Origin: Candidatus Saccharimonadota bacterium
GTDB lineage: Bacteria; Patescibacteriota; Saccharimonadia; Saccharimonadales; Saccharimonadaceae
Direction of reading: 5' to 3'
Assembly: GCA_017552385.1 (NCBI GenBank)
Contig: JAFZQB010000008.1
Coordinates: 1,663-65,662 of the forward strand
DNA: 64,000 nt
The position numbers and the translations under genes were made by a program. Each line of letters opens with the position of its first letter. Within the stretch, counting starts at the first letter, position 1. Below, in pieces: positions 10,830 through 60,797 of this stretch. The notes beneath the pieces are model-generated. The model was not told the DNA's origin. It ran no database searches and saw only the letters and a program-made list of their open reading frames with translations.

Positions 10830-10869
10830 GTTTTAAGTATAAACGGTTTGAGAACTTTTGACAAGTAAC

Positions 10870-38320: not shown

Positions 38321-38910
38321 TATTCTGTGCTCCCTGTTATGCTACCTGTTCTCTCCCCAGAGGTCAGACTAATATTGATAGAAATTGGTCTCGCAAAACC
38401 ATCAAGCTCTGAACTTTGGACATCGAACCCTTCGCATGTCGAAGTAGAAGCGATTGGCACAAGGTTAGCGGTCTTTTCTAATTGATGCGCCCCGTCTGAG
38501 AGGGTAAGTTTACAAGTGCCATTTGACAGAAACTGATCAACAGCGACGCGGACTAACAGTTTATCGCCGTCGAAGCGCGCAGTAGTGATTGAGCCGGTGA
38601 GAGACTCGTAGGTGTTCGGGTCAGTCCCTTCGTATTTTTCTGGAGTTTTACCATCGGAAGATATAACGGAGTCCGTGGTAGAAGGGTCGGCCTCGGTCAT
38701 ATTGGAAGATTGTGTGGTCTCCTGTGTTTCCCCTGACGATCGTTTATCGGGATTACTATTAGTAACAGTATCAGTGCTAGGATTCATTGGCTGCCTAAAG
38801 GCAAGATATAGAAGAGCGGCAACAACGATTATGATAACGAAAAAGAAAAGTGGTTGTTTATAAAATGGGCGATGGCGACGAAGAGATGTTTGTTGTTTGT
38901 TTTGTGGCAT
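38320..38910 (-). CDS. Single-pass membrane protein with an S/T/D-rich linker and a small Cys-pair extracellular domain
   Basis: 196 aa. TM LFFFVIIIVVAALLYLAF. Stop overlaps the start of the ricin-domain gene. CAGGAG SD. Confidence 0.55.
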   Translation of the reverse strand: MPQNKQQTSLRRHRPFYKQPLFFFVIIIVVAALLYLAFRQPMNPSTDTVTNSNPDKRSSGETQETTQSSNMTEADPSTTDSVISSDGKTPEKYEGTDPNTYESLTGSITTARFDGDKLLVRVAVDQFLSNGTCKLTLSDGAHQLEKTANLVPIASTSTCEGFDVQSSELDGFARPISINISLTSGERTGSITGSTE

Positions 38911-38967: not shown

Positions 38968-40092
38968 CTAATATTTGTAGATATACCATCCTTTGGTTTC
39001 GTAATGGAAACGCCATGCGCGGGAGTGACCTTTTACGCCTGTAGTGTGAAGTTTTGCGTCCCATGGGTCAACATAGCTAAATTGGACTTCCTTGCCATCA
39101 AGAATGATATGTGGTTGGTCCCAGTTCTCGCCGATACAAGTGTTCTGGTCGAAGTATACTTCAATTCGATCAACATTTGTGGTGTTAACAAAACTCGAAA
39201 CGCCAACAAATGTAACAAAATGGCGACCAACTTTCCCGTTGTATTTCTTGCCGTAAGTCTTATTGCCCATGGCAACGCTGACTGGTTTGCCGGACATTAT
39301 TTCTCCGACAAGTTCTTTCACGAGAGCCTTGAAAGCATTACGGTTGACTACCTTGCTAGAAGAATTTTTGATAACCGAGCCGTTGCAATGCATTGGCGAA
39401 TTGTCTTCATTATCGTTAGAGGGTATTGTTTGTGTATGGACAGAAGCGCCACCTCTCAATGGGGCTTCGTGGACTATAGGATTGCCATAAATCATTTCTT
39501 TGGCATTAACGCGAGCCATATCTGCACATACGCTCCCCCACCCGCTAGTGGCCTTATACGATTGGCAGGAGTGGTACTTGGAGCAGGCATTTTTTACATA
39601 TTCTGAAGCGTGAATTTTGGTATCTGCGTAGCAAAAGCCTCCTTCTTCATAAGTGTGCGGGTTGTCCGCACAGGAGACACCTTCTTTGGTTTCCTTGGGC
39701 GGGATTTCTTCTTCGCCCTCACCTGGCGGAGTAGGGGTGACTGGCTCTTCTGGTTCCTTTGGGCATGAAGAAGTCATAGTGTCTAATGTCGAATTAATAA
39801 TGCCACCAGGAATTAAGAACTCAGCAAAAGCAAAGAAAACGCTATAGCACATTATTCCAATAATTATTTCCGCAAATCGCCGTTTAGCCTTGGTTTGAAG
39901 GGCGGGATTGCCAGCGGAAGTTATATACGAAACCCCGACTATTATGATGCTAATTACCGCGAATGCGCCGATTAAAATAGTGAGAATCTCAATACCTTCG
40001 GCAAGTATTTTATATATTGCCCCGCCATCGCAGTAGTCGCAAACTTTTCCAAATAGACCTGTGTCAATGCATTGCAGTATTCGTTCTGACAT
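38968..40092 (-). CDS. Fusion protein: T4SS-pilin-like (VirB2/TrbC-like) membrane hairpin plus P/E linker plus Cys-rich segment plus putative papain-like Cys/His domain
   Basis: 374 aa. VISIIIVGVSYITSAGNPALQTKAKRRFAEIIIG aligns with the pilin paralogs at 60282-62240. The C-terminal domain (GSVCADMAR ... GRHFVTFVGV ... VDPWD) is paralogous to ORF 49975-50871. Confidence 0.7.
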   Translation of the reverse strand: MSERILQCIDTGLFGKVCDYCDGGAIYKILAEGIEILTILIGAFAVISIIIVGVSYITSAGNPALQTKAKRRFAEIIIGIMCYSVFFAFAEFLIPGGIINSTLDTMTSSCPKEPEEPVTPTPPGEGEEEIPPKETKEGVSCADNPHTYEEGGFCYADTKIHASEYVKNACSKYHSCQSYKATSGWGSVCADMARVNAKEMIYGNPIVHEAPLRGGASVHTQTIPSNDNEDNSPMHCNGSVIKNSSSKVVNRNAFKALVKELVGEIMSGKPVSVAMGNKTYGKKYNGKVGRHFVTFVGVSSFVNTTNVDRIEVYFDQNTCIGENWDQPHIILDGKEVQFSYVDPWDAKLHTTGVKGHSRAWRFHYETKGWYIYKY

Positions 40093-40094
40093 GT

Positions 40095-40853
40095 TTATTC
40101 TTCTCCCGAGTTAATATATATCGGATCTGTCCAGACATAAAAGTGCTTTTTAGAAGATAAATTATTAAATATTTCTGAGCCAGTATATTGCTCTGGCAAA
40201 TCCGTTTCGCTATGCTTTAGATTCTCGTCAGAAGAATCAGCGCAAGAGATAGGGGATATATTATATATAGAATCAGCGAGTGAGCCACCGAATATTAGAA
40301 TAGCTTTACTAACTTCGCCAAATTCGTAATCCCATTGGCCAGATATTATAACGACAGAGGCGTTGTCGAGATACAGATTAAGCATAGTTGGGTTCATTCG
40401 TGGGACTTCTACAAGCTCACTACATAGAATATTAGTAGGCGGTTCAGAATAATACTTTTTTGAAATACTAAAGTCTGGCATATATGATGACCCCGGATCC
40501 TTAGATAGCTCATAAAAGTAATTGTTTAGTGCTAGCTCTTCGTCGACAACCGTATCGTCGGTGATTATAGAGCCATCCTGCGAAGGTGTCTCCTTGGCTG
40601 GCTTGGCAGGTTCAGAAAGCGACACGAGAATGATTAGAAGAATAACAATTATTATGAGGCCGATTGTCACAGGGATAGTCCAAAGCGGGAAGGCAGTAGT
40701 CTTATGCTGCTCTTTCCATGCTTGTTTGGCACTAGGATTAGACGGTTCAACAATAGATCCGGTTGGAGATTGACTAACTCTTGTTGAATGGCCAAGCGAA
40801 GCTAAGGCTCGTCTGTTTGTAGAATGAGCCGCATCTGTAAATCTTCTTTTCAT
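40095..40853 (-). CDS. Single-pass membrane protein, paralog of ORF 49352-49987 (candidate immunity/partner protein)
   Basis: 252 aa. TM IPVTIGLIIIVILLIILVSL. C-terminal strings MLNLYLDNASVVIISG and SEIFNNLSSKKHFYVW match ILNFYLDQEDTIVAILE and SELFNQLTSSTKFYIVK. TGCTAAAAT lies 7 nt before the ATG. Confidence 0.6.
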   Translation of the reverse strand: MKRRFTDAAHSTNRRALASLGHSTRVSQSPTGSIVEPSNPSAKQAWKEQHKTTAFPLWTIPVTIGLIIIVILLIILVSLSEPAKPAKETPSQDGSIITDDTVVDEELALNNYFYELSKDPGSSYMPDFSISKKYYSEPPTNILCSELVEVPRMNPTMLNLYLDNASVVIISGQWDYEFGEVSKAILIFGGSLADSIYNISPISCADSSDENLKHSETDLPEQYTGSEIFNNLSSKKHFYVWTDPIYINSGEE

Positions 40854-40900
40854 TAAGCTTATTTTAGCATGCGTACAAGGCTGATTGCAAGGAAAGGATA

Positions 40901-41248
40901 CTAACTCTGTCGTTGAATAGAGTCCGGATCTAAACCTAAAATCGCGGCGGCCCTTAGAAGTGTCTGGATATCCTCTTCAGACTCAGAGGAGTTGATAGCT
41001 TTAGCGAAGAGAGTGACGGTTTCAGGATATATATCGATAGTAACTTCGAGTGAACGGGCAGCTCCTGGAATTTTTCTTAGAACTCCTTTTGCTACAAGGT
41101 TCTCAATATGCTCAGCAACGGCAGAGACAGAGGATAGCCCTACTCCAATCATAATCTCACGATAAGATGGAGAATAGCTATTTTCTCTGAGAAAAGTCGA
41201 AATAAAGTCTACAATTTGCTTTTGCTTTTTTGTCAGTTTTTCGGGCAT
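40901..41248 (-). CDS. LexA N-terminal-type winged-helix DNA-binding protein without a peptidase S24 domain
   Basis: 116 aa from ATG 41248: MPEKLTKKQKQIVDFISTFLRENSYSPSYREIMIGVGLSSVSAVAEHIENLVAKGVLRK. The longer track ORF (to 41470) overlaps the divergent LCP gene. Confidence 0.7.
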   Translation of the reverse strand: MPEKLTKKQKQIVDFISTFLRENSYSPSYREIMIGVGLSSVSAVAEHIENLVAKGVLRKIPGAARSLEVTIDIYPETVTLFAKAINSSESEEDIQTLLRAAAILGLDPDSIQRQS

Positions 41249-41270
41249 GTATGGTATAATTGTATAATAA

Positions 41271-43214
41271 ATGACTGAAGAAGGAAAGACAATAGATGGG
41301 TTTACCGTCCGTCGTGCGGGCGATTCAAAGTTAGTTTCGCGTTCAAAAGCGAATAAACTCTCATCGAATTTAATATCAAGAAAAGTTAAGACGGTAGCGC
41401 AAAATGACCCATTGGTCAGAAAGTCCGTCGAGCGTAGTCGTGTCAAATCTAATCCTGCGGTCCCGTCCATGGATATGAAAGCACGAAAGAAGCCCGTTCA
41501 GCGTCGCAAAATTTCGAAGGCGAAGACGGCGGAGTTATTTGCCGCGGAACCGTTGGCATTTAATTTAGATATCGAGTCATCAAAAGGTGCAGCTAAATTG
41601 TCCGATGACGAGAAAAGATTTGCGGGTGGAATTCGTGAAGAGCTGTCCGATGATGAATCTTATGAAGAGAGTGAAAGAAGCGTCAAGGCACACGATGAAT
41701 TTTTGGCGCCAATAGAGTCTTTTGATGCCGACTCCGACTCAACTAGCAGTGGTGTTGTTTCTGAGGTAGAAGACGAAGAGATTAAAGATATGAAGAAGTC
41801 AAAGAAAGAGTTAAAAGAAAACGAGAGACGTGCAAAGCGCGAACGAAAACATCTCGAGAAGCTCGAGAAAAAAAAGAAATCGAAAGTACGTAAGGTCTTA
41901 AAATGGGTTTTGATTGTTCTTATTCTTTTGATTATCGGCGTAGGTGCATATTTATATTTTTGGGGCGATGAAATAATCCGAAAGATTACTGGTGGGAATG
42001 GAGATATTTGGAGTGCGATTAGCGCATTCACGGCTGAAACGTATGACCCATTAAAAACCGACGAGAATGGCAGGACAAATATCTTAGTGTTTGGCACTAG
42101 TGGTTTTGATTCTGAAGGCACCGGTTTTGGTGGCTACGAGCATGATGGCTCGAATTTAACTGACTCAATTATGGTCGTTTCCCTTGATCAAGAGAGTGGT
42201 GATGTGGCAATTGTTTCCCTGCCGAGAGATCTATATGCTGGATACACTTGCACGGCAACCTCAAAGATAAATGAAGTTTATTGGTGCAATAACCAATACG
42301 GCGATAACGAGGAAGCCGGCGCAGTTGCTCTTCAAGAAAAGATCAGAGAAATACTTGGTATAGATACGCAGTATTGGGTTCATATGAACTGGGGTGCATT
42401 AGTGAATATCGTCGACACGCTCGGTGGGATTACTATCGTACTTGATGAAGACATCAATGATCAGTGGTACACTGGCGCTGTATATTCTGCAGGTGTACCA
42501 TACACAATCAATGGTTATGATGCGTTGGGCCTCTCAAGAGCGCGCCATGGTACTGAGTATGGTGATTTTTCACGTGCAGCAAGCCAGCAGAAGATTTTAA
42601 TTGGTATCAAGAATAAAGTGGTCGAGAAGGGCTTAGGCCTTTCTGAAGCTCTTAATATTATTTCTGCAGTAGGAGATAACCTTCGCATGAATCTTAATAT
42701 GACAGAGATTAAGACTGGTATGCACCTGCTAGAAACTTTGGACTTGGATGGTATTCGCCAAATTCCTATTTGGGATGACAACACAAAATATATGTCGTTT
42801 GGCAACAGAGATGGCATTTCTTATGTGATACCAAGTGCTGGATTCGGCGTATATGGCCCATTGCAAGAATATGTAGGGCAGCAGCTCAAGAGCAACCCTG
42901 CGGAGCGCGAGGGCGCGGTGTTAATTGTCTACAATGGCTCCGGAGAAGATGGTGCAGCAGCGCAAGAACGAGAATTGCTTGAAGAGAAAGGTTATAGAGT
43001 AAAAGATATAGCTAATGCCCCCGAGGGTGAATATAAATATGTGGAAGATATTGAGCTATATGATGCAAGCGAAGGATTAAAGCCGGATACGAAGAAGGCC
43101 CTGCAAAAGTTTTATGGCGTTGAGGCGAAAGATATGAGCTTACTCCCGAACGGGATTTCTCCGATTGGATATGACTTTATAATTATAGTCGGCAGTGCTG
43201 CGAATGCAGAATAG
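41271..43214 (+). CDS. LCP (LytR-CpsA-Psr) family glycopolymer-to-wall ligase with a long basic cytoplasmic N-terminus
   Basis: 647 aa. About 200 aa K/E/R-rich N-terminus, a TM, then LCP core NILVFGTSG...SNLTDSIMVVSLDQESGDVAIVSLPRDLY and a LytR_C-like tail. Confidence 0.85.
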   Translation: MTEEGKTIDGFTVRRAGDSKLVSRSKANKLSSNLISRKVKTVAQNDPLVRKSVERSRVKSNPAVPSMDMKARKKPVQRRKISKAKTAELFAAEPLAFNLDIESSKGAAKLSDDEKRFAGGIREELSDDESYEESERSVKAHDEFLAPIESFDADSDSTSSGVVSEVEDEEIKDMKKSKKELKENERRAKRERKHLEKLEKKKKSKVRKVLKWVLIVLILLIIGVGAYLYFWGDEIIRKITGGNGDIWSAISAFTAETYDPLKTDENGRTNILVFGTSGFDSEGTGFGGYEHDGSNLTDSIMVVSLDQESGDVAIVSLPRDLYAGYTCTATSKINEVYWCNNQYGDNEEAGAVALQEKIREILGIDTQYWVHMNWGALVNIVDTLGGITIVLDEDINDQWYTGAVYSAGVPYTINGYDALGLSRARHGTEYGDFSRAASQQKILIGIKNKVVEKGLGLSEALNIISAVGDNLRMNLNMTEIKTGMHLLETLDLDGIRQIPIWDDNTKYMSFGNRDGISYVIPSAGFGVYGPLQEYVGQQLKSNPAEREGAVLIVYNGSGEDGAAAQERELLEEKGYRVKDIANAPEGEYKYVEDIELYDASEGLKPDTKKALQKFYGVEAKDMSLLPNGISPIGYDFIIIVGSAANAE

Positions 43215-43215
43215 T

Positions 43216-43266
43216 GGGGTCTAGCTCTAAAGACCCCTCTAACTAATAAAGGCCCTTGGGGCCTTT
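43216..43266. terminator. Two adjacent hairpins between convergent genes (bidirectional terminators)
   Basis: GGGGTCT-agctctaa-AGACCCC, and AAAGGCCC-ttg-GGGCCTTT followed by a T-rich tract. Confidence 0.7.
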
Positions 43267-43741
43267 ATTCTTCGTCGTCTTTACGATCAACTTTAGAGAT
43301 GATTAAAACCCGTTCACGTCCTTCGCCTTCGGAGTGGGTTGTAATATCAGAATAGTCTTCCGCGAGCTTATGAACAACTCGACGGTCTGCGGCATTAAGA
43401 TTAATCGTCATCGGTTCACCGGTTTGGCGAACTTTTTTTATCCATCCCTCTGCCTTATCTGCGATGCGGTCGGCGCGTTGACGCTTATAATCAGCGATGT
43501 CGACATTGACGCGGGTAATCTCAGCGTTTTTAGCAACGAGAGACATGCTAACAATATGTTGAAGGCAGCGAAGGTTTTCGGCGTTCTTACCGATAAGCAG
43601 GCTGTTCATGCTAGTTGAGGGAACACTAAGTTGGATGACTTCGTCGTCGATGGTTGAATATACCGCGACGTTGATGCCAAAGAAGCTCAGTAGATCCTCT
43701 AGATATTTGGTGGCAAAGCGGATTGACTCGTCTCTGTCCAT
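43265..43741 (-). CDS. jag: Jag/KhpB-type RNA-binding protein (KH + R3H domains)
   Basis: 158 aa. R3H region LNAADRRVVHKLAEDYSDITTHSEGEGRERVLII. Conserved position downstream of yidC. Confidence 0.85.
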   Translation of the reverse strand: MDRDESIRFATKYLEDLLSFFGINVAVYSTIDDEVIQLSVPSTSMNSLLIGKNAENLRCLQHIVSMSLVAKNAEITRVNVDIADYKRQRADRIADKAEGWIKKVRQTGEPMTINLNAADRRVVHKLAEDYSDITTHSEGEGRERVLIISKVDRKDDEE

Positions 43742-43746
43742 AATTG

Positions 43747-44796
43747 TTATCTCCTTTTCTTTTTATTATCTTTGGCGGAGATACGAGTTATTTTTGTTCC
43801 TGTCTTTTTATTTTCTATCACTTCAGCTTCCTGAATGTGTTTAAGTTCTTTAAGGACGGCCTTGTCGGCAGAGATTTCCATCTCTTTTTCGGCTTTATCC
43901 AAGACAATTTTTTGCTGGACAAAGGTAATAACGTTCGATAAGAAGTAGTAAAGAATAAGGGCACCTGGGAGGTTAATCATGATTAAGAGGAGCATAATTG
44001 GCATAAATGTGCCCATCTGAGCAGAAGTCATATCGTTTATTTCTGCTTGGTTGACTTCTTTGCCCTCACCCGCTTCTTTCATGAGCTGACGGAAGCTCTT
44101 ACCTTTGCTCTTGCCAGAAGGGCGAATTTGCTTTTGAGTGAGGTATTGAACAAAACAAGCCAAAACAGCAAGAAAGAGGGCGAAAATGGCGCTTGGGCTG
44201 ACAAACCCTGGCGTTGCCTCAAGATTCACGATCCCGAAGAGATTGGGGTGGAACTCATAGACTGGTGTCTCCGCAGAAGACTTCTCCTCTTCTGTCTTAG
44301 ACTCATCGGCTTGAATAGCATCATAAGATGATTTTTCCTCTAGGTATTTATTTTGGAGACGAATAACCTCTTGGATACGAGATCCATCTTGCTTAACAAA
44401 CGAATAGGCGCGAGCATCGAGGTTTGAGTCGATTGTTGGAATATTGACCATTACTCGAATAGCGCCGAAAATCGCGATAAACATCGGTAATTGAATAATA
44501 AGAGCGAGAATAGCCCGGAATGGTTTGACGTTATACTTCTTATACAGATCCATTGTCTGCAAGGACTCTAGTTGGCGGTTCCCTGCACAATTCTTCTTAA
44601 TCTCGGCTAGCTCAGGTTGAATCTTGCGCATGAGCTTGGTTTGGTGGAGTTGTCGTTTAACTAGTGGCCACATACAAAGTTTAACCACTATGACAAAGAG
44701 GATAATGGCAAGGCCAAAATCGCCAACAAGATTATAGATAAGGAAAAGAATGTTTGTAATTGGGCGGACAATAATAGTATCTATTAGGCTAAACAT
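43747..44796 (-). CDS. yidC: Membrane protein insertase YidC
   Basis: 349 aa. FGLAIILFVIVVKLCMWPL...KLMRKIQPELAEIKKN...MDLYKKYNVKPF motifs. Synteny with rnpA. Confidence 0.92.
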   Translation of the reverse strand: MFSLIDTIIVRPITNILFLIYNLVGDFGLAIILFVIVVKLCMWPLVKRQLHQTKLMRKIQPELAEIKKNCAGNRQLESLQTMDLYKKYNVKPFRAILALIIQLPMFIAIFGAIRVMVNIPTIDSNLDARAYSFVKQDGSRIQEVIRLQNKYLEEKSSYDAIQADESKTEEEKSSAETPVYEFHPNLFGIVNLEATPGFVSPSAIFALFLAVLACFVQYLTQKQIRPSGKSKGKSFRQLMKEAGEGKEVNQAEINDMTSAQMGTFMPIMLLLIMINLPGALILYYFLSNVITFVQQKIVLDKAEKEMEISADKAVLKELKHIQEAEVIENKKTGTKITRISAKDNKKKRR

Positions 44797-44803
44797 ATCT
44801 TTC

Positions 44804-45145
44804 CTATTGTAACATACTTTCCTCTATAAGAGAACGGATAGTTTTCTGTAGCTCCAGATATGGCTGGTCCTTAACCGCCTTGGAGTAAATAACAAAAATA
44901 TAGTCGCGAGGTTTTTTAAATTTATCTAGATTAAGCCGAATTATCTCGTAGATGCGACGACGAATCCGATTGCGGCCAACGGCTGACTTGATGACCTTCT
45001 TAGAGACAACAACAGCAAAGCGGGTTTTCCCGCGCGAGTTGTCACAGAAAATCAACGAAAGGTCTGGCCGTCGAATCGTTTTGCCGGACCTATAGACAGA
45101 TTTAACTCCACCACGAGAGTGGAAGCGATATTCTTTAACTAGCAT
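44804..45145 (-). CDS. rnpA: Ribonuclease P protein component
   Basis: 113 aa. FAVVVSKKVIKSAVGRNRIRRRIYE (RNR motif). Located between rpmH and yidC. Confidence 0.92.
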   Translation of the reverse strand: MLVKEYRFHSRGGVKSVYRSGKTIRRPDLSLIFCDNSRGKTRFAVVVSKKVIKSAVGRNRIRRRIYEIIRLNLDKFKKPRDYIFVIYSKAVKDQPYLELQKTIRSLIEESMLQ

Positions 45146-45172
45146 ATATTATATATATTATAACATATAGAA

Positions 45173-45195
45173 AGAAGCTGGCTTTGCCAGCTTCT
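45173..45195 (-). terminator. Hairpin immediately after the rpmH stop
   Basis: AGAAGCTGGC-ttt-GCCAGCTTCT perfect 10-bp stem. Only a weak T-tract follows, and a TGTTATAAT promoter for rnpA comes next. Confidence 0.5.
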
Positions 45196-45197
45196 TA

Positions 45198-45335
45198 TTA
45201 ATAGGTAAGTTGTTTGCGGCCTTTAAGGCGGCGGCGCTTTAGAACTAGGCGACCAGCATGGGTAGCGTTTCTCTTCATGAAGCCATGTTCAGCTTTGCGC
45301 TGACGCTTGTGTGGCTGATATGTGCGTTTTGGCAT
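45198..45335 (-). CDS. rpmH: 50S ribosomal protein L34
   Basis: Hand translation gives [45 protein letters not shown] (45 aa). Too short for the ORF track. Confidence 0.95.
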
Positions 45336-45394
45336 AAATCTTAGAATCCTATATAGTTTTAAATTTTGCAAATATTTGTTGTATTATATCGCAG

Positions 45395-45521
45395 TTTTCC
45401 ACCAAAAGCAAGGAGTTTTCCACATCGTGAACGGGGTAAGTGGAAATCCGTGGAAAAGTTCTTCCCTGTTAATTTTTTAAATATTATAAAACAAAAAATC
45501 TTACAAGAAACCTGTGGAAAA
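45395..45521. other. oriC part 1: DnaA-box cluster between rpmH and dnaA
   Basis: TTTTCCACC (45395), TTTTCCACA (45416), GTGGAAAT (45440), CGTGGAAAA (45449) and TGTGGAAAA (45513) are variants of TTWTNCACA. AT-rich flanks. Confidence 0.8.
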
Positions 45522-45570
45522 CTTTATTAACTTCGGTTATAATTGTTCTATCAAAGGAGGTCGATAAGAA

Positions 45571-46965
45571 GTGTTTGATGTATTCCAGAATGTCCTAGCA
45601 GAAACCCGAAAAGGGATTGGTGAGATGAATTATAAAATATGGTTCGAGAATGTCGAATTAATCTCACTAGATAAAGAGCTGATGTCGGCTACAATCGGTG
45701 TGCCTAATGTTTTTAAGAAAAAAGGATTAGAAACTAGGTATAAGGGTGAGTTATTAAAAGCGTTTGAACATAATGACCTCCCCCTAAAGCAGCTAGATTT
45801 TACAATTACCTCCAGTGAGAAAACAAGAGTAAGAGCGAGAGAAGTAAGGGGCGGGGATCCGTTGAGGTTTGGTGATGAGCCGCTTAGGCCCACTAAGAAG
45901 GTGCCCCAAAAAATTACACCACCCAAACTCCTACCTCGCACTACAACTAGTGGATTAAATCCTAAGTACACATTAGACAACTTCGTTGTAGGTAGAAATA
46001 ATGACTTAGCTGCTGGTGTTGCAAAACAGATCGTAAAAGACCCTGGTGGCAAATATAACCCGTTCTTCTTGTATGGCGGTCCAGGACTTGGTAAAACTCA
46101 CTTGGTGCAAGCGATTGGAAACGCGATTCTCGCAAAAGACCCAAACAAAAAAGTATTATATATAACAACAAACCATTTCTATTCTGAGTTTATTAACGCA
46201 GTGCGTAGTGGTAAAGGAGAAGAGTTTGTAAAGAGGTTCCAGAAGCTTGATGTATTAATTATAGATGACTTTCAGATGATTATTGGTAAGGACCGGAGCC
46301 AAGAAGAATTCTTTAATATCTTTAATGATTTACACCAAACAAATAAACAAATTATTGTAACAAGTGATCGGCTTCCTGATCAGATTAAGACCCTTGATGC
46401 GAGGCTTGCTGGGAGGTTAACGTGGGCTGGTGCATATGATTTACAGCTTCCTGGTTTTGAAGATAGATGTGCAATTTTAAAGGCGAAGGCAGAGTTTATG
46501 GGGCAGACTATTGAGGACAAGGCGGTTGAGTTTATTGCGGAAAATGTTAAGACGAATATTCGCGACCTAGAAGGTGAGTTTCAAAAGATAATGGCCACAA
46601 GCGAAATACGCGGAATGTCACCTCTTGAGTTAATTAATGAGGGGTATATCTCTGGGACAGTAGTGCGGCGCAGAAGGAATGTAACTGCTAGGATAATTGT
46701 TGAAAAAGTTGCTAAGTATTATGATCTTACGGTAGTTGAAATGACTGGTAAAAGCCGTGTGAGTAATATAAAGACCGCAAGACAAGTCGCAATGTATCTT
46801 TTATCAAAAGAGCTTGGGATGAGCACAACCAAGATTGCCCCCGAGGTAGGAGTAAAAGATCATACAACCGTAATGAACGGAATAAAGAAAATCGACCGGG
46901 ATCAAAAAACTGATCTACAGTTACGTGATCAAGTTGATCAAATTCGTGAGGCTATTTATGGCTAA
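45571..46965 (+). CDS. dnaA: Chromosomal replication initiator DnaA (GTG start)
   Basis: 464 aa. Walker A GGPGLGKTHL, LIIDDFQ, and C-terminal DNA-binding helix KDHTTVMNGIKKI. AAGGAGG SD. Confidence 0.96.
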   Translation: MFDVFQNVLAETRKGIGEMNYKIWFENVELISLDKELMSATIGVPNVFKKKGLETRYKGELLKAFEHNDLPLKQLDFTITSSEKTRVRAREVRGGDPLRFGDEPLRPTKKVPQKITPPKLLPRTTTSGLNPKYTLDNFVVGRNNDLAAGVAKQIVKDPGGKYNPFFLYGGPGLGKTHLVQAIGNAILAKDPNKKVLYITTNHFYSEFINAVRSGKGEEFVKRFQKLDVLIIDDFQMIIGKDRSQEEFFNIFNDLHQTNKQIIVTSDRLPDQIKTLDARLAGRLTWAGAYDLQLPGFEDRCAILKAKAEFMGQTIEDKAVEFIAENVKTNIRDLEGEFQKIMATSEIRGMSPLELINEGYISGTVVRRRRNVTARIIVEKVAKYYDLTVVEMTGKSRVSNIKTARQVAMYLLSKELGMSTTKIAPEVGVKDHTTVMNGIKKIDRDQKTDLQLRDQVDQIREAIYG

Positions 46966-46967
46966 TT

Positions 46968-47228
46968 CGTGGAAAAGCCTGTGTAGAACTTTGTGTGTAC
47001 TGTGTGGGTTTTGTGTAGAAAACTTTGTTCAAAAGTCCAAAATTGGAGAATTGATGGCTTTTGTTTGTGGGAAAATGGTATGTTTCGCGGATAAGTGTTG
47101 GTTCATTGTGGGTAATTATATATATGTTGGTGGAAAAGGTGACCAGGTAAGAAAGGCTGGTTTTATCACGATTTCCACAGTTTCCACATAGTCTATAACT
47201 ATTATTACTTATATAATAAATAATAAAG
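46968..47228. other. oriC part 2: DnaA-box cluster plus AT-rich tract between dnaA and dnaN
   Basis: CGTGGAAAA (46968), TGTGTAGAA(A)ACTTTGT direct repeat, TGTGGGAAAA (47066), GGTGGAAAA (47129) and tandem ATTTCCACA-GTTTCCACA (47171-47188). An AT-rich stretch follows at 47194-47228. Confidence 0.75.
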
Positions 47229-47236
47229 GAGGAAAA

Positions 47237-48343
47237 ATGGAAATTGAAGTAGAGTCAGGAAAACTAGCTAAAGCTCTAGCGATCGTAAGTAGGATTGCAG
47301 TAAATGGAAAAGCGATATTGCCAATTCTTAATAATGTTTTAATTAGAGTAGATGCTAGGAAGGTGAGTCTCACGACAACAAACCTCGATATGGCAGTAGT
47401 TGATTTCCTTCCCGTAAGCGAGAGTAAGGATGGGGTGGTAACCGTGCCTGCTAGACTACTTGCCGAGTTTGTTGGAAACTTACCAAAGGGCGCCCCAGTG
47501 AAGATTATTGCTGATGGAACAAAAGTAGTTACTGAGTCTGGTAAGTATACCTCCACACTTAATGGTACGGTGGCTGATGATTTTCCTGAGTTACCAGAAA
47601 TTGATGAAGTGAAGATGGTTAGGTTTAAGATGGGTGTGGACGAGTTTAAGACTGGAATGAACCAAGTAATGATGGCTTGCTCTAACGACATGACGAGACC
47701 AGCGCTCACTGGTGTATATTTTAATACGGACGACGGGACGCTATATATTGCGGCGACGGATGGGTATAGATTGGCAGAAAGAAGATTTATTGAGAAAGTG
47801 GAAAGCGAAGTGAAGGCGATAGTGCCAGCTAGTTCCCTATCTGAGGTGATGAGGTCATTAAGCGACGAGGAAGAAGAAATAGAAATACTGTTCGACGAGG
47901 CGCAAGTGAGGTTTAGGTTTGGCGAGATTGAAATTACCTCAAAGCTTATTGATGGTAGTTTCCCAGACTATCGACAACTAATTCCAAAAACAAATGAGGC
48001 GGAAATTGTATTAGAAAAAGGAGAACTTTTACGTGTAACAAAGTTAGCTGCGCTTTTTGCTAGGGAAGTTGGTGGATCTATAGTACTGGAAGCAAAAACA
48101 GCGACTAAAACCTTTTCGGTTGCCTCTGTAGCGAACGAATTTGGTGAAAACACATCAGAAATTGAAACAACCATTCCAAAAGATGAGAGGATGACACTAA
48201 ACTCAAGGTTCCTTATTGATGCATTAAACGCGGTTGATGAAGAAAAGGTGGTGTTGGGCTTTTCTGGAAAGCTAAACCCAATAGTTGTTAAGAACGAGAA
48301 GAGTAATAATTATACGCATATTATTATGCCACTAAAGTCATAA
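47237..48343 (+). CDS. dnaN: DNA polymerase III beta sliding clamp
   Basis: 368 aa. Canonical position after dnaA. LTTTNLDMAV, ATDGYRLA and MPLK C-terminal motifs. Confidence 0.95.
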   Translation: MEIEVESGKLAKALAIVSRIAVNGKAILPILNNVLIRVDARKVSLTTTNLDMAVVDFLPVSESKDGVVTVPARLLAEFVGNLPKGAPVKIIADGTKVVTESGKYTSTLNGTVADDFPELPEIDEVKMVRFKMGVDEFKTGMNQVMMACSNDMTRPALTGVYFNTDDGTLYIAATDGYRLAERRFIEKVESEVKAIVPASSLSEVMRSLSDEEEEIEILFDEAQVRFRFGEIEITSKLIDGSFPDYRQLIPKTNEAEIVLEKGELLRVTKLAALFAREVGGSIVLEAKTATKTFSVASVANEFGENTSEIETTIPKDERMTLNSRFLIDALNAVDEEKVVLGFSGKLNPIVVKNEKSNNYTHIIMPLKS

Positions 48344-49359
48344 TGATAGTAAAGAACTGTAAACTTACAAACTTTAGGAGTCACGACTATTTTGAGCTAA
48401 GTTGTTGGAAAGAAACAACGATGCTTTCTGGCGAAAATGGCAGCGGGAAGACCTCTATCCTAGAGGCGATATATGAAGCGATGCGTGGTAAAAGCTTTCG
48501 GGCTGTAGATAAAGAGATTATAAAGCGCGGAGCAGACTTCTATAGGGTTGAGTTGGAATATAAAGATGGCGAAAAAACGACAGTAGTGTATGAGAAAGAT
48601 GGGAAGAAGTATTTTCTTGTTGGTGATAAGAAAGCCGCGAGGCTTCCGCAAAAATATAGGTACCCAGTAGTTTTGTTTGAGCCGGACGACTTAAACTTGA
48701 TAAACAGTTCCCCGTCGCACAGGAGAGACTATTTTGATAGGTATTTTGGCCAATTAAGTGATACATATAGTACTACTGTAAGTAAATACAACAAAGCCCT
48801 CAGACAAAGGAATGAACTATTAAAAAGCACCTTCATATCACGAGATGCGATGTTCTCGTGGAATATAATTTTGAGTCGCCTTGGTGTAGAAATATGGAGA
48901 AGCAGAGAAAAGTTGGTGGCGAGTATTAATGAAGAGCTCACGAAGGTGTATCAGTCGATTGCTGGGAACGACGACGAGGTAGTTATTAAACTAAAGGCAG
49001 ATCCTTGTGGGAGGACGGAAAGTGATTATTTAGGCGAATTAGAGAAAGGGTTTGAAAAGGACAAAGTGCTTAGTCACACGAGTTTTGGTGTACATCGTGA
49101 TAATTATGAATTTTGGTTTAATAATAGACTAGCGGACGGGTCGGCGAGTCGCGGCGAAGTAAGGTCTATTGTAGTTGCACTGAAGTTTATTGAGGCGGAT
49201 ATGATATTAAAAACAGTTGGAAAGGCGCCGGTAGTATTGCTTGATGATGTGTTCTCTGAGCTTGATGAGATGAGACAAAAAGCATTGGTATATAATTTCA
49301 AAAAGAACCAAGTAATTATTACGAGTGTAAATGCAGTTGAAGACATCGAGACTAGTTAG
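48343..49359 (+). CDS. recF: DNA replication/repair protein RecF
   Basis: 338 aa. Walker A GENGSGKTSILEAI, and LLDDVFSELD Walker B/D-loop. ATGA overlap with dnaN. Confidence 0.9.
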   Translation: MIVKNCKLTNFRSHDYFELSCWKETTMLSGENGSGKTSILEAIYEAMRGKSFRAVDKEIIKRGADFYRVELEYKDGEKTTVVYEKDGKKYFLVGDKKAARLPQKYRYPVVLFEPDDLNLINSSPSHRRDYFDRYFGQLSDTYSTTVSKYNKALRQRNELLKSTFISRDAMFSWNIILSRLGVEIWRSREKLVASINEELTKVYQSIAGNDDEVVIKLKADPCGRTESDYLGELEKGFEKDKVLSHTSFGVHRDNYEFWFNNRLADGSASRGEVRSIVVALKFIEADMILKTVGKAPVVLLDDVFSELDEMRQKALVYNFKKNQVIITSVNAVEDIETS

Positions 49360-49987
49360 TTGAGTCTGATGCTGGTTTTTTAACGATGTAAAACTTTGTT
49401 GAAGAGGTGAGTTGGTTGAAGAGTTCAGAACGCGAAAAATGAATAGCGGCTTCTTCTGGGAATAGATAGTCGTCTTTATTGGAGCCGTCTGGATTAAAAT
49501 CGGATGGGTCGAAGCCGACGAAACTATAGTTATATGCAGCGCTAGCATATATAAACAGTGTGGTGGATTTTTTGTCTAGCGAAGAAATACCAGATGGTTC
49601 AAGAATAGCAACGATGGTATCTTCTTGGTCTAGGTAGAAGTTTAATATATTAGAATTCATTGCGGCGACACTCGTTGCGGACGAAAAATCAGGGTTTTCA
49701 ACATTAATATTATAGAGGAGGATGATTTCTTCAGGAACAGCTCCGTAGTTAGGAGAGACTTCGTTTGGTGTTGTGTAGTTGTGGTTGGGGTCTTTGTCTA
49801 CAATAGAGGCAAGTGTTTCATTGAGGCTCTCAACTTGTTCTTGTTGCTCTGCTGTGATAACGTTGTTAAATCTATCCTTGCCGATTATTACAACTATAAT
49901 GATAGCCACAATGGATAAAGCCATGATTATTAGGGCAGCGAGTAAGAGCTTTCGTTTTTTATTGTAGTCTATCATTATGTACCACAA
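49352..49987 (-). CDS. Single-pass membrane protein, paralog of ORF 40095-40853 (candidate immunity/partner protein)
   Basis: 211 aa. TM LLLAALIIMALSIVAIIIVVIIG. Shares C-terminal strings with the 252-aa protein. Start overlaps the upstream gene by 13 nt. Confidence 0.6.
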   Translation of the reverse strand: MWYIMIDYNKKRKLLLAALIIMALSIVAIIIVVIIGKDRFNNVITAEQQEQVESLNETLASIVDKDPNHNYTTPNEVSPNYGAVPEEIILLYNINVENPDFSSATSVAAMNSNILNFYLDQEDTIVAILEPSGISSLDKKSTTLFIYASAAYNYSFVGFDPSDFNPDGSNKDDYLFPEEAAIHFSRSELFNQLTSSTKFYIVKKPASDSTN

Positions 49988-50871
49988 TCCTTTCGATCAT
50001 CGCCGGTCTTGGTGGTCGGTATATAATACTCTGATTCGTAAATGAATCTATTTTGTTTATCGGTGCGGCTGCAGCTGCCATTAGACCAACGGTAGCCCCC
50101 AAAGACTCCGGAGATGTTGTTCCATAGGATGCCACCACCAAAGGTTTCTAGGAATAGGAAGTCCGAATTGTCTAGGTGTTCACGATTTGCGTTTTCTTTA
50201 ACACCGACGACGGTGGCATAATGGCGTTGTGCTTGGGCATCCTGTGAGGTTCTCATAGAAACACGCCGTACGGCGGGGCGACCAGCCATAATATCATCAT
50301 ACATTTTTTGGAAGTTACCATCTCCTTGTATTAAGGAAAACCCGCTAGGTGTTCTACCGCGATCATACCTGCCAGTGCTACAGGAATCGGAGGTGATTGT
50401 GTCGTAAAACATATCATAGGCCATATTACGAGAAACGATATCACAATGTCCATTTTGTGCCGTGGAGTCGGTGTGATTACCATTGAGGTCATAGAGCTTT
50501 TTGTCGCTTTGATCAATATGGTAGGCGCGGACCTTTTCGGCAATATATCTTTCTAGACCGGTTTTGCCGTCGGACCCATCATCATCTTTACCGTTTACAG
50601 TAACTTTAATAACGTTGAATGTCATACCGCACATTGTGAATTTTGTAACGCCTTGGCCTTCCTCGGATGGTACATTACCGCCACCCTCCTCTTCTTCTCC
50701 CTCTGTGCCACAATCTGTTTCATCGTCACATGGTCTAGTAAAAATAATTCCCTCTAGAGCGTAGCGCTGTCTTTCTGCGTTCGAAAATTGGTAAGCAAAG
50801 GCTTTAATAGTTATAGCGCCAGCGATAATGATAGATAGTAGAATAAGAGGAAAATAGTTTTTTCTTAACAT
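49975..50871 (-). CDS. Secreted/anchored protein with a putative papain-like Cys/His domain, paralog of the C-terminus of ORF 38968-40092
   Basis: 298 aa. N-terminal TM/signal, acidic G/E linker, then NGHCDIVSRNMAYDM ... FQKMYDDIMAGRPAV ... QRHYATVVGV, matching the same ordered motifs in the pilin-fusion protein. TGCTATAAT lies 7 nt before the ATG. Confidence 0.65.
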   Translation of the reverse strand: MLRKNYFPLILLSIIIAGAITIKAFAYQFSNAERQRYALEGIIFTRPCDDETDCGTEGEEEEGGGNVPSEEGQGVTKFTMCGMTFNVIKVTVNGKDDDGSDGKTGLERYIAEKVRAYHIDQSDKKLYDLNGNHTDSTAQNGHCDIVSRNMAYDMFYDTITSDSCSTGRYDRGRTPSGFSLIQGDGNFQKMYDDIMAGRPAVRRVSMRTSQDAQAQRHYATVVGVKENANREHLDNSDFLFLETFGGGILWNNISGVFGGYRWSNGSCSRTDKQNRFIYESEYYIPTTKTGDDRKDCGT

Positions 50872-50894
50872 TACCTTTATTATAGCACAAATAA

Positions 50895-51572
50895 TTATTG
50901 TAAGGAATTGAGCGAACGGACCATCTGTTGATCGAGAAAGGAAAGGTCGGAGTAAGTGTAAAAGAGTTTAGGCATCGTTTTTGGCTCGCCGTTCTCTAGG
51001 ATAAAGCGATAGGTATTAGTGGAGCCGTCATAAAGAGAATGGGTGAGGGTCTGGACGGTATATGGAGATTCGCCAAAAGCGTAGAGATTGGATTTTGTAA
51101 ACCCAGACGGTAGATTATTGGATTTGAGGTCTTCTAAAGAGTAGCCAGTGAAGGGGTTGTAATAATTTAGGAGCTCGATCTCATAATCAAGAGGGTCGTA
51201 TTTGCCAAAATTTTCAGTGAGAAGACGTGTAACCATGGTATCGCGAGAGGAGGCGGAAAGTGCAGAAAGAGTGAGCTTAAAAGTGTAGTCTCCCATACTA
51301 TCGGTGTCTAAAAGGTAAGAGATTTGGTATGATGGGCTTTCGGAAATAATCGGGAGATAGTCAGAGATTTTAAAAGCTTCATTTTCTGAGAGGGCTTTTT
51401 GATCAGCCGCAAGAGAGGCGTCGTACTCTCTAGAACTATCACCTTCGATACCGTCATTTTCTGAAGAAGTGGCTATGCTAACTATGACCGCTAAAACGAC
51501 GATAATAAGAAGACCAACGACGACGAAGGAGAGAAGTTTGTGTTTTTGAAAGAGGGATTTAATAGTCTGCAT
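50895..51572 (-). CDS. Single-pass membrane protein in the T4SS operon (position analogous to VirB8/PrgL-like components)
   Basis: 225 aa. TM LLSFVVVGLLIIVVLAVIVSIA plus a roughly 180-aa extracytoplasmic domain. The functional call rests on gene order only. Confidence 0.4.
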   Translation of the reverse strand: MQTIKSLFQKHKLLSFVVVGLLIIVVLAVIVSIATSSENDGIEGDSSREYDASLAADQKALSENEAFKISDYLPIISESPSYQISYLLDTDSMGDYTFKLTLSALSASSRDTMVTRLLTENFGKYDPLDYEIELLNYYNPFTGYSLEDLKSNNLPSGFTKSNLYAFGESPYTVQTLTHSLYDGSTNTYRFILENGEPKTMPKLFYTYSDLSFLDQQMVRSLNSLQ

Positions 51573-51574
51573 AA

Positions 51575-53041: not shown

Positions 53042-53114
53042 ATATTATAGCATATTGCGGGCATTATTTGAATGGCCGCAAGATAAGTGGTGGGATTGGG
53101 TGTGTAGACTTAGG

Positions 53115-55773: not shown

Positions 55774-55784
55774 ATCTTCTCTCC

Positions 55785-56714: not shown

Positions 56715-56743
56715 AGTACAATTTTACCATAAACGTAACTGAA

Positions 56744-60746: not shown

Positions 60747-60782
60747 AGCCGCTTTGATGAATTCGTATGGGCGTGGATAATG

Positions 60783-60791
60783 TGATACAAT
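60783..60791 (+). promoter_or_regulatory. Extended -10 promoter (TGATACAAT) 6 nt upstream of the pilin-2 ATG; leaderless-type
   Basis: TGATACAAT-aaggcc-ATG. Confidence 0.6.
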
Positions 60792-60797
60792 AAGGCC

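Follow-up and report, generated by a model that had tools for sequence, protein, structure and literature searches.

Two paralogous cassettes pairing a predicted pilin-linked cysteine hydrolase with a putative pseudo-enzyme in a gut Saccharibacterium

The two cassettes and the neighbouring T4SS genes

The window (the whole stretch of 64,000 nucleotides that was analysed) comes from a gut Saccharibacterium and contains two related two-gene cassettes, modules A and B, both on the minus strand. The four orfs from which the original prediction assembled its paired-gene modules are all present, at the positions given below. In module A, partner A (40095-40853, minus strand, 252 aa) has a basic N-terminal tail predicted to be cytoplasmic, one transmembrane (TM) helix (approximately residues 57-80) and a predicted extracytoplasmic domain homologous to that of partner B; a TG-extended -10-like site lies by this gene at 40861-40890. 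Its stop codon is 2 nt ahead of the start codon (TAA-AC-ATG) of enzyme A (38968-40092, minus strand, 374 aa), which consists of a VirB2-like T4SS pilin, a Pro/Glu-rich linker and a C39-like Cys hydrolase domain. The pilin core (residues 25-100; 39793-40020, minus strand), recognized with Pfam and hhalign, is a pair of hydrophobic helices with a basic TKAKRR loop between them and a conserved IPGG motif after them. Its score against Pfam T4SS_pilin (22.8 bits) is under the cut-off of 26.6, and the orthologue P0009 scores 34.1 bits. The pilin portion is genuine, as had been proposed: the N-termini of the fusion proteins match the five canonical pilins of the window with an hhalign probability of 98% (E=2.4e-13). 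The hydrolase domain (residues 140-374; 38971-39675, minus strand) was examined in a 60-sequence domain alignment, and its codons were checked; the predicted catalytic set is Q177 (39562-39564), C189 (39526-39528), H291 (39220-39222) and the acidic residue E311 (39160-39162).

In module B, enzyme B (49975-50871, minus strand, 298 aa) begins with one hydrophobic helix, which carries an AFA-like cleavage motif, and continues with a C39-like domain (residues 70-298; 49978-50664, minus strand; domain alignment, codons checked) with the predicted catalytic set Q121 (50509-50511), C143 (50443-50445), H217 (50221-50223) and D237 (50161-50163). In its AlphaFold model, Cys143 opens a helix (142-156) and His217 opens a strand (215-225), but the model is poor (pLDDT 57) and its best structural match is not significant (E 0.6). 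The N-terminus had been described as a signal or TM segment and is indeed signal-peptide-like, but it is a degraded pilin, a remnant found in this lineage only, since orthologues outside the lineage are 350-371 aa long and keep the full two-helix VirB2-like pilin; the IPGG motif is lost as well (EGII instead). Partner B (49352-49975, minus strand) overlaps enzyme B as predicted, but the 13-nt overlap of the mechanical orf, which begins at TTG 49987, is less likely than a 1-nt overlap (TAATG). The most likely start, which yields 207 aa, is the ATG at 49975; the homologue P0018 begins MLDYNKKRK.

Next to module B is a monoderm-type T4SS gene string (50895-60172, minus strand) assigned with NCBIfam and Pfam, the Pfam labels being taken from orthologues in the sister genome L013. 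It encodes, all on the minus strand, a VirB6/TrbL-like protein (56744-60172), a PrgI/VirB3-like protein (55785-56714), a TraC/TrsD-like protein (54934-55773), VirB4 (53115-54941; NCBIfam conju_CD1110, 1e-113), a lysozyme-containing wall hydrolase (51575-53041; Phage_lysozyme2, 1e-22) and a TM protein of 225 aa (50895-51572). Four tandem canonical VirB2-like pilin paralogues follow on the plus strand (60282-62240; Pfam T4SS_pilin, 4e-8) and a fifth lies on the minus strand (63691-63984); the canonical pilins match one another in phmmer at 5e-18 to 3e-10, and each pilin of the array has a Sec signal peptide and stops right past the second TM helix (TM2). Module B had been placed at the 3′ end of the T4SS operon, and it does begin 23 nt past the preceding gene, but its co-transcription with the T4SS genes is not established because the spacer holds an extended -10-like element (TGcTATAAT). 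The description of a module embedded in the operon holds for the window and the sister contig of L013, but in six other lineages the cassettes are far from virB4.

Domain assignments and paralogy

What had been called a Cys/His domain probably belongs to the papain clan, as a divergent C39-like cysteine hydrolase that retains the full Gln-Cys-His-Asp/Glu set and is predicted to be active. In the 60-sequence alignment, Cys and His are invariant (60/60 each), Gln is present in 58/60 and Asp is the acidic residue in 49/60; their order is that of papain and C39. Searched with a profile of the domain, 1.84 billion representatives yielded 99 matches at E<=1e-3, and 41 of the 54 distant matches are Pfam Peptidase_C39_2 (PF13529; best 3.4e-14), some carrying fused M23, M15_3 or Phage_lysozyme2 domains. 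Neither enzyme A nor enzyme B alone reaches any Pfam threshold; a protein of L012 clears the Pfam cut-off and is matched by A-only and B-only HMMs alike. We know of no well-characterised PF13529 member that could be cited. Members have been described as single-domain peptidases and classed beside C39, BtrH_N and phytochelatin synthase (PMC10318531), and the family is catalogued among lysin/endolysin domains (PMC10541714).

The partner is predicted to be a type-II (N-in/C-out) single-pass membrane protein, and fold comparison suggests that its ectodomain is probably papain-like without a Cys/His nucleophile, a pseudo-peptidase. The model of partner B (pLDDT 81.5, pTM 0.72) has as its top Foldseek matches papain, phytochelatin synthase (probability 0.96), the C39-like domain of HlyB and CHAP, with further matches to viral Peptidase C1A (probability 0.92-0.95); papain-clan proteins lead the matches in two independent libraries, although the matches are weak (E 0.01-0.1, TM 0.25-0.32). 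No Cys or His is conserved across the partner homologues. In size the partner equals the enzyme domain, whereas immunity proteins are typically small.

Pairwise and profile alignments bear out the proposed paralogy of both genes of the modules. Partners A and B align by BLASTP over 148 aa (29% identity, E=4e-8), and A-type and B-type partners align by hhalign over 130 columns (probability 97.7%, E=2.2e-12). Enzymes A and B align by BLASTP over 56 aa surrounding the His motif (E=1e-4), the two types of hydrolase domain align by hhalign (probability 92.6%, E=4.7e-7), and HMMs of a single enzyme type match the opposite type at approximately 2e-4 in a database of 559 orfs. The motif pairs NGHCDIV/GSVCADM, MAGRPAV/MSGKPV and QRHYATVVGV/GRHFVTFVGV, which had been noticed in the two enzymes, share alignment columns. 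The inverted gene order is likewise real and is conserved within each subtype: partner then enzyme in the A type (window and L004), enzyme then partner in the B type.

Linkage, recombination and selection

Enzyme and partner genes are adjacent at every locus recovered with its flanks (approximately 12 distinct loci), and no partner without an enzyme gene was found among the recovered loci. The junctions are 1-nt overlaps or 2-3-nt gaps, and both gene pairs are translationally coupled; in L004, a tandem array reads partner-enzyme-partner-enzyme. Partner identity follows the identity of the neighbouring hydrolase (r=0.96, a value partly driven by the contrast between the A and B clusters) and not that of the pilin (r=0.31). 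Pilins are 62-74% identical within a lineage type whatever type of hydrolase is attached, while hydrolases are 47-71% identical within a type across lineages and approximately 20% identical between types. This mosaic indicates that pilin N-termini and hydrolase/partner cassettes have recombined, and the joining of a hydrolase/partner unit to differing pilin N-termini looks modular in the manner of polymorphic effector/immunity systems. The true link of the cassettes to the T4SS is the pilin fusion, which the original prediction gave for module A only; no description of pilin-enzyme fusions was found in the literature searched. The close family is restricted to a few ruminant-gut Saccharibacteria and includes only one GTDB species representative.

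Between the window and L013, in which the counterpart of enzyme B is 94% identical, dN/dS is approximately 0.014 for enzyme B and 0.07 for partner B. The partner evolves approximately fourfold faster than the enzyme (dN 0.119 versus 0.031). Enzyme B is under strong purifying selection, evolving as slowly as dnaN or yidC, and therefore shows no arms-race signature.

A possible function at the cell surface and its relation to known systems

We tentatively propose that the two proteins of each module form a cognate pair, a pilin-tethered hydrolase and its pseudo-enzyme partner, displayed on the exterior of the epibiont membrane. A Pro/Gly/Thr-rich linker joins the hydrolase to the C-terminal end of a VirB2-like T4SS pilin, a topology that would put the enzyme domain outside the cell, where it could become part of the T4SS pilus or be carried next to it; the B copy of this lineage, having lost the second pilin helix, would probably be a Sec-dependent secreted or signal-anchored enzyme. 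The hydrolase would cleave an envelope substrate at the epibiont-host interface, either stem or cross-bridge peptides of peptidoglycan or a surface protein, in line with the wall-hydrolase domains (M23, M15, lysozyme) fused to PF13529 relatives and with the listing of that family among endolysin domains. On the surface of the producer itself, the pseudo-enzyme would bind the hydrolase domain cognate to it and restrain, dock or escort that domain, in an immunity-like or regulatory role. The cassettes offer a testable lead to what the T4SS, essential yet unexplained in these epibionts, displays on the cell.

The effector/immunity interpretation of the original prediction fits the paralogous partners, the tight coupling, the co-divergence of the pair as a unit and the mixing of pilins, but not the lineage-limited embedding in the T4SS operon or the slow evolution of the enzyme. 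In its strict form, with an antibacterial or host-damaging effector acting via or on the T4SS pilus and a partner that is dedicated immunity for the producer and its kin, it seems somewhat unlikely. The conserved, lineage-specific N-terminal pilin could be a trafficking domain with swapped C-terminal domains, one genome holds two divergent cognate pairs (L004 even a tandem array), both ectodomains are predicted to occupy the same compartment, and the partner diverges together with the hydrolase yet faster. There is also a precedent in the X-Tfe/X-Tfi of Xanthomonadales, wall hydrolases delivered by a T4SS and accompanied by immunity proteins. However, the enzyme is covalently bound to a two-helix membrane pilin instead of being a free substrate, and is constrained like a housekeeping gene; the partner is large, membrane-anchored and enzyme-like, and orphan partner genes are absent from the recovered loci. 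Host killing, moreover, would profit an obligate epibiont little, so that damage would have to stay local.

That constraint would suit a core function such as VirB1-like accessory wall remodelling, in which the hydrolase opens the epibiont's own peptidoglycan at pilus exits and the partner positions or limits it. Module B directly follows the region of the operon's lysozyme-type hydrolase, fusions link PF13529 relatives with other wall hydrolase domains, and monoderm T4SSs employ VirB1 analogues that combine a glycosidase with a Cys-peptidase (10.1101/2025.01.22.634366). We nonetheless regard this explanation as unlikely: the operon already has its lysozyme-containing hydrolase, virB4 is distant from most cassettes, a housekeeping helper would hardly account for domain shuffling or for two or more divergent cassettes in one genome, and the cassette is missing from the essential T4SS cluster of S. 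epibionticum, the model species, with no PF13529 protein in the published annotation table of strain ML1. A classical C39 processing protease that cuts a leader or linker, for instance to mature pilins or to free itself from its pilin at IPGG, with the pseudo-peptidase as a substrate-holding adaptor like the HlyB domain, is improbable. C39 peptidases cleave after Gly-Gly (PMC10318531; PMC6363468), IPGG follows TM2 in nearly all fusions, and the HlyB domain is among the structural matches of the partner, but the motif is PGN or PGR in P0089 and P0104, module B of the window retains its enzyme without it, the canonical pilins of the array rely on ordinary Sec signal peptides and stop after TM2, and PF13529 relatives are mostly attached to wall-hydrolase domains, not exporters. 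IPGG probably just marks the membrane boundary. Very improbable is an incidental pairing in which the partners are structural, VirB8-like T4SS subunits: they are single-pass proteins of approximately 210-250 aa, one of which closes the T4SS gene string, but this identity is disfavoured by their papain-like fold matches, with no VirB8/NTF2-like match in the fold searches, and by their constant position beside an enzyme gene, usually far from virB4. The partners have no similarity to the 225-aa TM protein of the operon, and S. epibionticum has unrelated proteins at the equivalent T4SS operon positions.

The cognate surface cassette that we prefer has points in common with several known systems. 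Its enzymes resemble Peptidase_C39_2, bona fide members of which are their distant relatives, in how Gln, Cys, His and Asp are ordered and conserved and in the core G-x-P-V ... R-H-[FY]-V-T-V-V-G, which aligns to profile positions 83-132. They differ in scoring under the family cut-off, in the fused T4SS pilin, in the obligate pairing with a membrane pseudo-enzyme and in extra inserts, one of approximately 30 aa that separates Cys from His in the A type and another that forms an additional hairpin bearing a YVDPW motif. The partner is like the C39-like domain of the HlyB exporter, a catalytically dead C39 fold that serves in substrate binding, in being membrane-tethered and predicted to be papain-like with the catalytic Cys/His absent, but it is a stand-alone protein and not an ABC-transporter domain, has no detectable sequence homology to it, and has as its presumed ligand the neighbouring active hydrolase, not a secretion substrate. 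VirB1-type wall hydrolases (PrgK, TcpG, CwlT) share with the predicted window enzymes an extracytoplasmic papain-clan Cys hydrolase and an association with monoderm T4SSs, but they carry lysozyme or SLT plus CHAP or NlpC/P60, whereas the window domain is C39-like without a glycosidase, is pilin-anchored and has a paired pseudo-enzyme. The logic of the cassettes resembles that of polymorphic toxins and X-Tfe/X-Tfi: a modular N-terminal delivery domain carries a C-terminal enzymatic domain that can be exchanged, a cognate gene next to it co-varies, and the system is tied to a T4SS; the window delivery domain, however, is a pilin, not an XVIPCD signal, LXG, PAAR or Rhs. Saccharibacteria typically carry arrays of divergent pilins near virB4, and these are essential. 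Unlike those VirB2/TrbC-type pilins (PF18895 arrays of Patescibacteria), the fusions are without a Sec signal peptide, have a Cys-rich N-terminal extension (C-x-DT...C-D-x-C-x-GG), add a C-terminal enzyme domain of 230-280 aa and are mostly encoded outside the T4SS cluster, but they have the same two-helix hairpin with a basic loop, and at their N-termini they share homology with the pilin array of the window.

Genomic setting of two paralogous cassettes

Identical proteins are present in NCBI as IK146_01600 and IK146_01660. Module A, on the minus strand, begins with a membrane protein (partner A, 40095-40853, 252 aa), followed after a 2-nt gap (junction TAA-AC-ATG) by the pilin-fused enzyme A (38968-40092, 374 aa). 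Module B, also on the minus strand, begins with enzyme B (49975-50871, 298 aa), followed by the membrane protein partner B. The likeliest start of partner B is the ATG at 49975, which gives a protein of 207 aa, overlaps the TAA of the enzyme by one base and is matched by homologues in which the equivalent methionine is the start; the TTG at 49987, which produces the 13-nt overlap of the original prediction, is less likely.

A T4SS gene string of the monoderm type ends with module B. Ahead of this module the string encodes, in order, VirB6/TrbL-like, PrgI/VirB3-like and TraC/TrsD-like proteins, VirB4 (NCBIfam CD1110 family, 1e-113), a Phage_lysozyme2-containing hydrolase and a 225-aa TM protein, and it runs into the convergent genes recF-dnaN-dnaA. 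That Patescibacteria have a T4SS beside dnaA has been published (10.1101/2025.01.22.634366). On the far side from recF-dnaN-dnaA, the T4SS operon is flanked by a canonical VirB2-like pilin array on the plus strand (60282-62240), consisting of four tandem paralogues with Sec signal peptides, near which lies a fifth, signal-less copy on the minus strand (63691-63984). The array corresponds to the "pilin arrays" described as essential in Saccharibacteria, in which the T4SS is essential for epibiotic growth, has unusual VirB2-like pilin arrays and has a function described as completely unknown (PMC11665869, PMC12857230, PMC10633639).

The placement of module B within the T4SS operon is correct for the window and for the sister contig (L013), which has the same layout, but does not extend to the other related loci, none of which has virB4 within 6-10 kb. 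In S. epibionticum ML1, prealbumin-like and PEGA-domain proteins are encoded in the corresponding interval, from recF to the T4SS lysozyme, and no PF13529 protein is listed in the ML1 annotation table. With virB4 nearby only in L013 and other proteins at the ML1 position, it is specific to this lineage that module B belongs to the T4SS string.

Several features of the surrounding sequence were recorded. The 23-nt spacer between the 225-aa protein gene and enzyme B (50872-50894) contains TGCTATAAT, a TGcTATAAT extended -10-like element that ends 7 nt before the ATG of enzyme B; judging by this element, module B may have its own promoter and possibly a leaderless transcript. Scans for promoters and terminators were on the whole uninformative, with no more matches than shuffled sequence would give. 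An 83-aa ORF (53045-53296, minus strand), which shares sequence with the 3′ end of virB4 in a different frame, is unlikely to be a gene, and the orthologous operon of L013 has no such ORF called. The genes immediately downstream of module A (36116-38910, minus strand) encode a single-pass membrane protein of 196 aa and a secreted protein of 734 aa with three ricin-type beta-trefoil lectin repeats (RicinB_lectin_2, 9.5e-35) after its N-terminal domain; neither is conserved beside the A-type cassettes in the related locus L004. A sign change of GC skew would normally mark an origin at the divergence of rnpA-yidC and dnaA-dnaN-recF (~45.2-45.6 kb); the skew is positive on the plus strand over the whole window, on both sides of this divergence. 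A type IV pilus pseudopilin-like gene cluster with prepilin-type N-termini (KKGFTLIE, KTGFTIVE) is located at 5859-9182 on the minus strand, the type IV pilus being the other essential surface machine of Saccharibacteria.

It is established that the window contains two paralogous cassettes. The original prediction claimed paralogy for both members of the pair, and significant BLASTP and hhalign matches bear this out for the enzymes and for the membrane proteins alike. Partners A and B align with E=4e-8 and 29% identity over 148 aa (BLASTP), or with a probability of 97.7% and E=2.2e-12 over 130 columns (hhalign); the enzyme domains align with E=1e-4 over 56 aa (BLASTP), or with a probability of 92.6% and E=4.7e-7 (hhalign). 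HMMs of a single enzyme subtype find the other subtype at ~2e-4 in a 559-ORF database, and an intermediate protein in the related locus L012 is matched by both the B-only HMM (5e-14) and the A-only HMM (2e-8). No similarity to the 225-aa TM protein of the operon was found for either partner. A third partner-like ORF (10215-10829, E=2.4e-4), located in the type IV pilus cluster and with low-complexity and TM sequence, was judged spurious.

The predicted hydrolase, its pilin N-terminus and the membrane partner

The Cys/His domain is predicted to be a divergent C39-like hydrolase of the papain clan, a functional resemblance that is well supported, with scores of the window enzymes below the level of formal Pfam membership. 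On their own, the window enzymes match no Pfam or NCBIfam enzyme family, and neither matches PF13529 (gathering threshold 24 bits) even at E<=10. A-type orthologues repeatedly match Peptidase_C39_2 below threshold (13-20 bits) across profile positions 83-132, the "G-x-P-V ... H-x-V-V-V-G" core, and the L012 protein is above the cut-off (24.7 bits). When 1.84 billion representative proteins were searched with a profile of the A and B domains, 99 proteins were found at E<=1e-3, and 41 of the 54 distant matches are PF13529 members (best 3.4e-14). In an alignment of 60 full-length domains (numbered as in enzyme B), Cys143 and His217 are invariant (60/60 each), as is Pro199, and Gln121 (58/60), Gly197 (58/60) and Arg216 (59/60) are nearly so; at position 237, 49 of the 60 have Asp, and the A-type proteins have Glu. 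Papain and C39 enzymes have their residues in this order, Gln...Cys...His...Asp. The AlphaFold model of enzyme B is mediocre (pLDDT 57, pTM 0.60); in it, Cys143 begins a helix (142-156) and His217 is at the start of a strand (215-225). Taken with the alignment, this is the arrangement of papain clan CA peptidases, in which the catalytic Cys opens a helix, the His lies on a later strand, and the two are preceded by an oxyanion Gln and followed by Asp or Asn, a place occupied by Glu in the A-type. Foldseek against the PDB gave no significant match (best E 0.6), with mostly papain-like proteases in the top ranks (TDE0362, cathepsin L, staphopain); sequence searches of the PDB with the enzyme and distant-relative profiles gave nothing meaningful.

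An envelope substrate is indicated, though not proved, by the following: the PF13529 relatives recovered in the search are fused to M23, M15_3 or Phage_lysozyme2 domains and to SLH or Big_2 modules; PF13529 is listed among lysin and peptidoglycan-hydrolase domains (PMC10541714); and its place in classification is next to C39, BtrH_N and phytochelatin synthase (PMC10318531). In the L012 region 34-2322, the 432-aa protein with the above-threshold C-terminal domain has a long helical N-terminus without TM segments, and the next gene encodes a helical protein of 326 aa; the 432-aa protein could have a secreted-toxin-like architecture from a different secretion route. An LXG/T7SS identity for its helical N-terminus was considered and is without Pfam support.

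The N-terminus of enzyme A is a VirB2-like pilin. Residues 25-100 form a two-helix TM hairpin with a basic loop (TKAKRR) and score just below the cut-off of Pfam T4SS_pilin (PF18895; 22.8 against 26.6 bits), which the orthologue P0009 exceeds (34.1 bits); the N-termini of the fusions align with the canonical pilins of the window with a probability of 98% and E=2.4e-13 over 67 columns (hhalign). Whereas the canonical pilins have a Sec signal, the pilin-enzyme fusions have instead a Cys-rich N-terminal extension, and after TM2 they share a conserved "IPGG...T-S-C-P" segment. In the usual VirB2 topology the basic loop is cytoplasmic, and on this basis the C-terminal hydrolase is predicted to be extracytoplasmic. 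All enzyme B orthologues from other lineages (P0002-P0007) are 350-371 aa in length with a complete pilin. Enzyme B of the window lacks the two-helix hairpin: it retains one hydrophobic helix and a remnant of the basic loop, and the helix is followed by an A-F-A motif, suggesting that the enzyme is probably secreted or signal-anchored. The truncated form is not a product of decay: in L013 the corresponding position is occupied by the same gene, again of 298 aa, with its first 50 residues unchanged and a dN/dS of ~0.014, a rough value because synonymous sites are saturated (dS 1-2).

A global search found this pilin type combined with a C39-like domain in at least 11 further representative clusters, with P0031, P0046, P0068, P0077, P0089 and P0104 among the distant fusions, and no mention of pilin-enzyme fusions was found in the literature searched. 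Seven other proteins (P0042, P0045, P0071, P0075, P0081, P0103 and P0115) carry a C39-like domain on a second, unrelated-looking N-terminus with two to three TM segments, which has a weak resemblance to a conjugal-transfer family of Mycoplasma ICEs, MMCAP2_0566; other monoderm T4SSs may therefore also have fusions of a membrane anchor with a C39-like domain.

To judge from its predicted fold and the lack of conserved Cys and His, the partner is probably a pseudo-peptidase anchored in the membrane. No family match was found for it in Pfam, NCBIfam or the PDB, the Pfam and NCBIfam searches returning only TM-driven noise. The structural model is good (pLDDT 81.5, pTM 0.72) and shows basic residues ahead of a TM helix at the N-terminus, from which an N-in/C-out topology is predicted, and an ectodomain consisting of a helix and then a multi-stranded sheet. 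Foldseek against the PDB ranked papain, phytochelatin synthase Alr0975 (probability 0.96), cathepsins, SpvD, the C39-like domain of HlyB, AvrRpt2 and CHAP domains, with E values of 0.03-0.8, and an independent library of viral models gave Peptidase C1A (probability 0.92-0.95), CHAP and endolysins. A papain-like fold is the best reading because the two libraries are consistent, though no single match is significant; the fold assignments of enzyme and partner both rest on such sub-significant structural matches. There is no conserved Cys or His in the partner family, and the helix at the nucleophile position begins M-N/D-x-x-I-L-N. Homology between partner and enzyme domain is undetectable by hhalign (probability 0.4%), and a common origin of the two, suggested by predicted fold only, is speculation.

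Inheritance and recombination of the cassettes

The enzyme and its partner lie side by side in every related locus that has flanking DNA, and among these loci no orphan enzyme or orphan partner gene was seen. The enzyme precedes the partner in B-type loci (L001-3, L005/6/8/11, L007, L009, L010, L013 and L014-16), and the partner precedes the enzyme in A-type loci, including L004, which contains a tandem partner-enzyme-partner-enzyme array (9230-12994) with hydrolase domains 48% identical and pilin N-termini 70% identical to each other. When GTDB representative genomes were searched with the partner profile, one locus only was found, and a metagenome scan added four; in these data the close family does not extend beyond a few lineages from the ruminant gut.

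Inheritance and recombination of the cassette as a unit is established. Across cassettes, identity of the partner ectodomain correlates with that of the neighboring hydrolase domain with r=0.96, to which the split between A-type and B-type contributes part, and with that of the pilin with r=0.31. Hydrolase identity is 41-89% among A-type proteins and 55-74% among B-type orthologues of different lineages, but ~20% between types. The pilin N-termini are of two types, "CDYCDGG" and "DDCHGT", with 62-74% and 48-80% identity within types and ~30% between them, and each type occurs with both hydrolase types. The identity matrices are incongruent: enzyme A of the window is 67% identical to the L005 protein in the N-terminal part and 23% in the C-terminal part, but 26% and 49% identical, respectively, to one enzyme of L004 (L004a). 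Such a mismatch can be produced only by recombination or gene conversion at the linker, and it shows that the pilin N-terminus is an evolutionary module separable from the unit of enzyme and partner.

Between L013 (9102-10630) and the window (49352-50871), the enzyme is 94% identical and the partner only 80%, with dN of 0.031 and 0.119, respectively; partner B evolves approximately four times faster than enzyme B, like the neighboring 225-aa TM protein. Purifying selection on both cassette genes is established. Each cassette is likewise established to consist of a pilin-borne or formerly pilin-borne, predicted-extracytoplasmic C39-like Cys hydrolase and a cognate membrane protein.

Possible functions and comparison with known systems

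The interpretation given most weight, which is plausible without yet being probable, is that the hydrolase would attack a substrate in the cell envelope where epibiont and host meet, and that the pseudo-enzyme would bind the hydrolase on the producer, restraining, docking or escorting it. The genetics are common to this interpretation and to the strict toxin/immunity pair of the original prediction, which is unlikely. The signature of such a pair was found in part: a conserved N-terminal delivery domain carries exchangeable C-terminal domains and an adjacent cognate gene co-varies with them, but there is no orphan partner in the recovered loci and no match to a known immunity family. A covalent pilin anchor, an enzyme-like partner and constraint on the enzyme at housekeeping level also fit a toxin and its immunity protein less well. 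A role of the hydrolase as a VirB1-like helper in self-remodelling is more doubtful again. Still less probable is a GG-type processing protease: IPGG as a double-glycine self-cleavage site is weakened by fusions that have PGN or PGR in its place and by enzyme B of the window, which is without the motif. The alternative named in the original prediction, that the partners are structural T4SS subunits conserved independently of the enzyme genes, is essentially excluded. A VirB8-like subunit would be NTF2-like, and the partner is predicted to fold like papain and not like NTF2/VirB8; in the recovered loci it is never found apart from an enzyme and is usually far from virB4, and the prealbumin-like and PEGA proteins at the S. 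epibionticum positions also oppose this identity.

Extending the preferred interpretation, delivery in a polymorphic effector system might be the task of the VirB2-like pilin itself, and in this system exchangeable hydrolase "warheads" in or on the essential T4SS pilus would breach the host envelope, each checked on the producer by a co-inherited pseudo-peptidase of the same papain-like fold, in Saccharibacteria and in at least ten further fusion clusters. This proposal as a whole is improbable at present; if it is true, it would provide the first defined cargo or function of a Patescibacterial T4SS and a new enzyme/pseudo-enzyme class of immunity. More generally, pilins that carry a probable envelope-cutting enzyme and are exchanged as cassettes with a cognate partner offer a concrete, testable idea about the T4SS, namely that the pilus or the T4SS surface would present hydrolases at the host interface, and the papain clan gains a possible enzyme/pseudo-enzyme regulatory pair.

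In the X-Tfe/X-Tfi system, effectors have a C-terminal XVIPCD and immunity proteins are lipoproteins, whereas the window proteins have an N-terminal pilin and a C-terminal enzyme, an arrangement that argues against membership in that system. The combination of a pilin-enzyme fusion, a putative pseudo-enzyme partner and cassette exchange on lineage-specific pilins appears to be undescribed; its parts are of known kinds, a C39-like peptidase, a VirB2-like pilin and a cognate neighbor.
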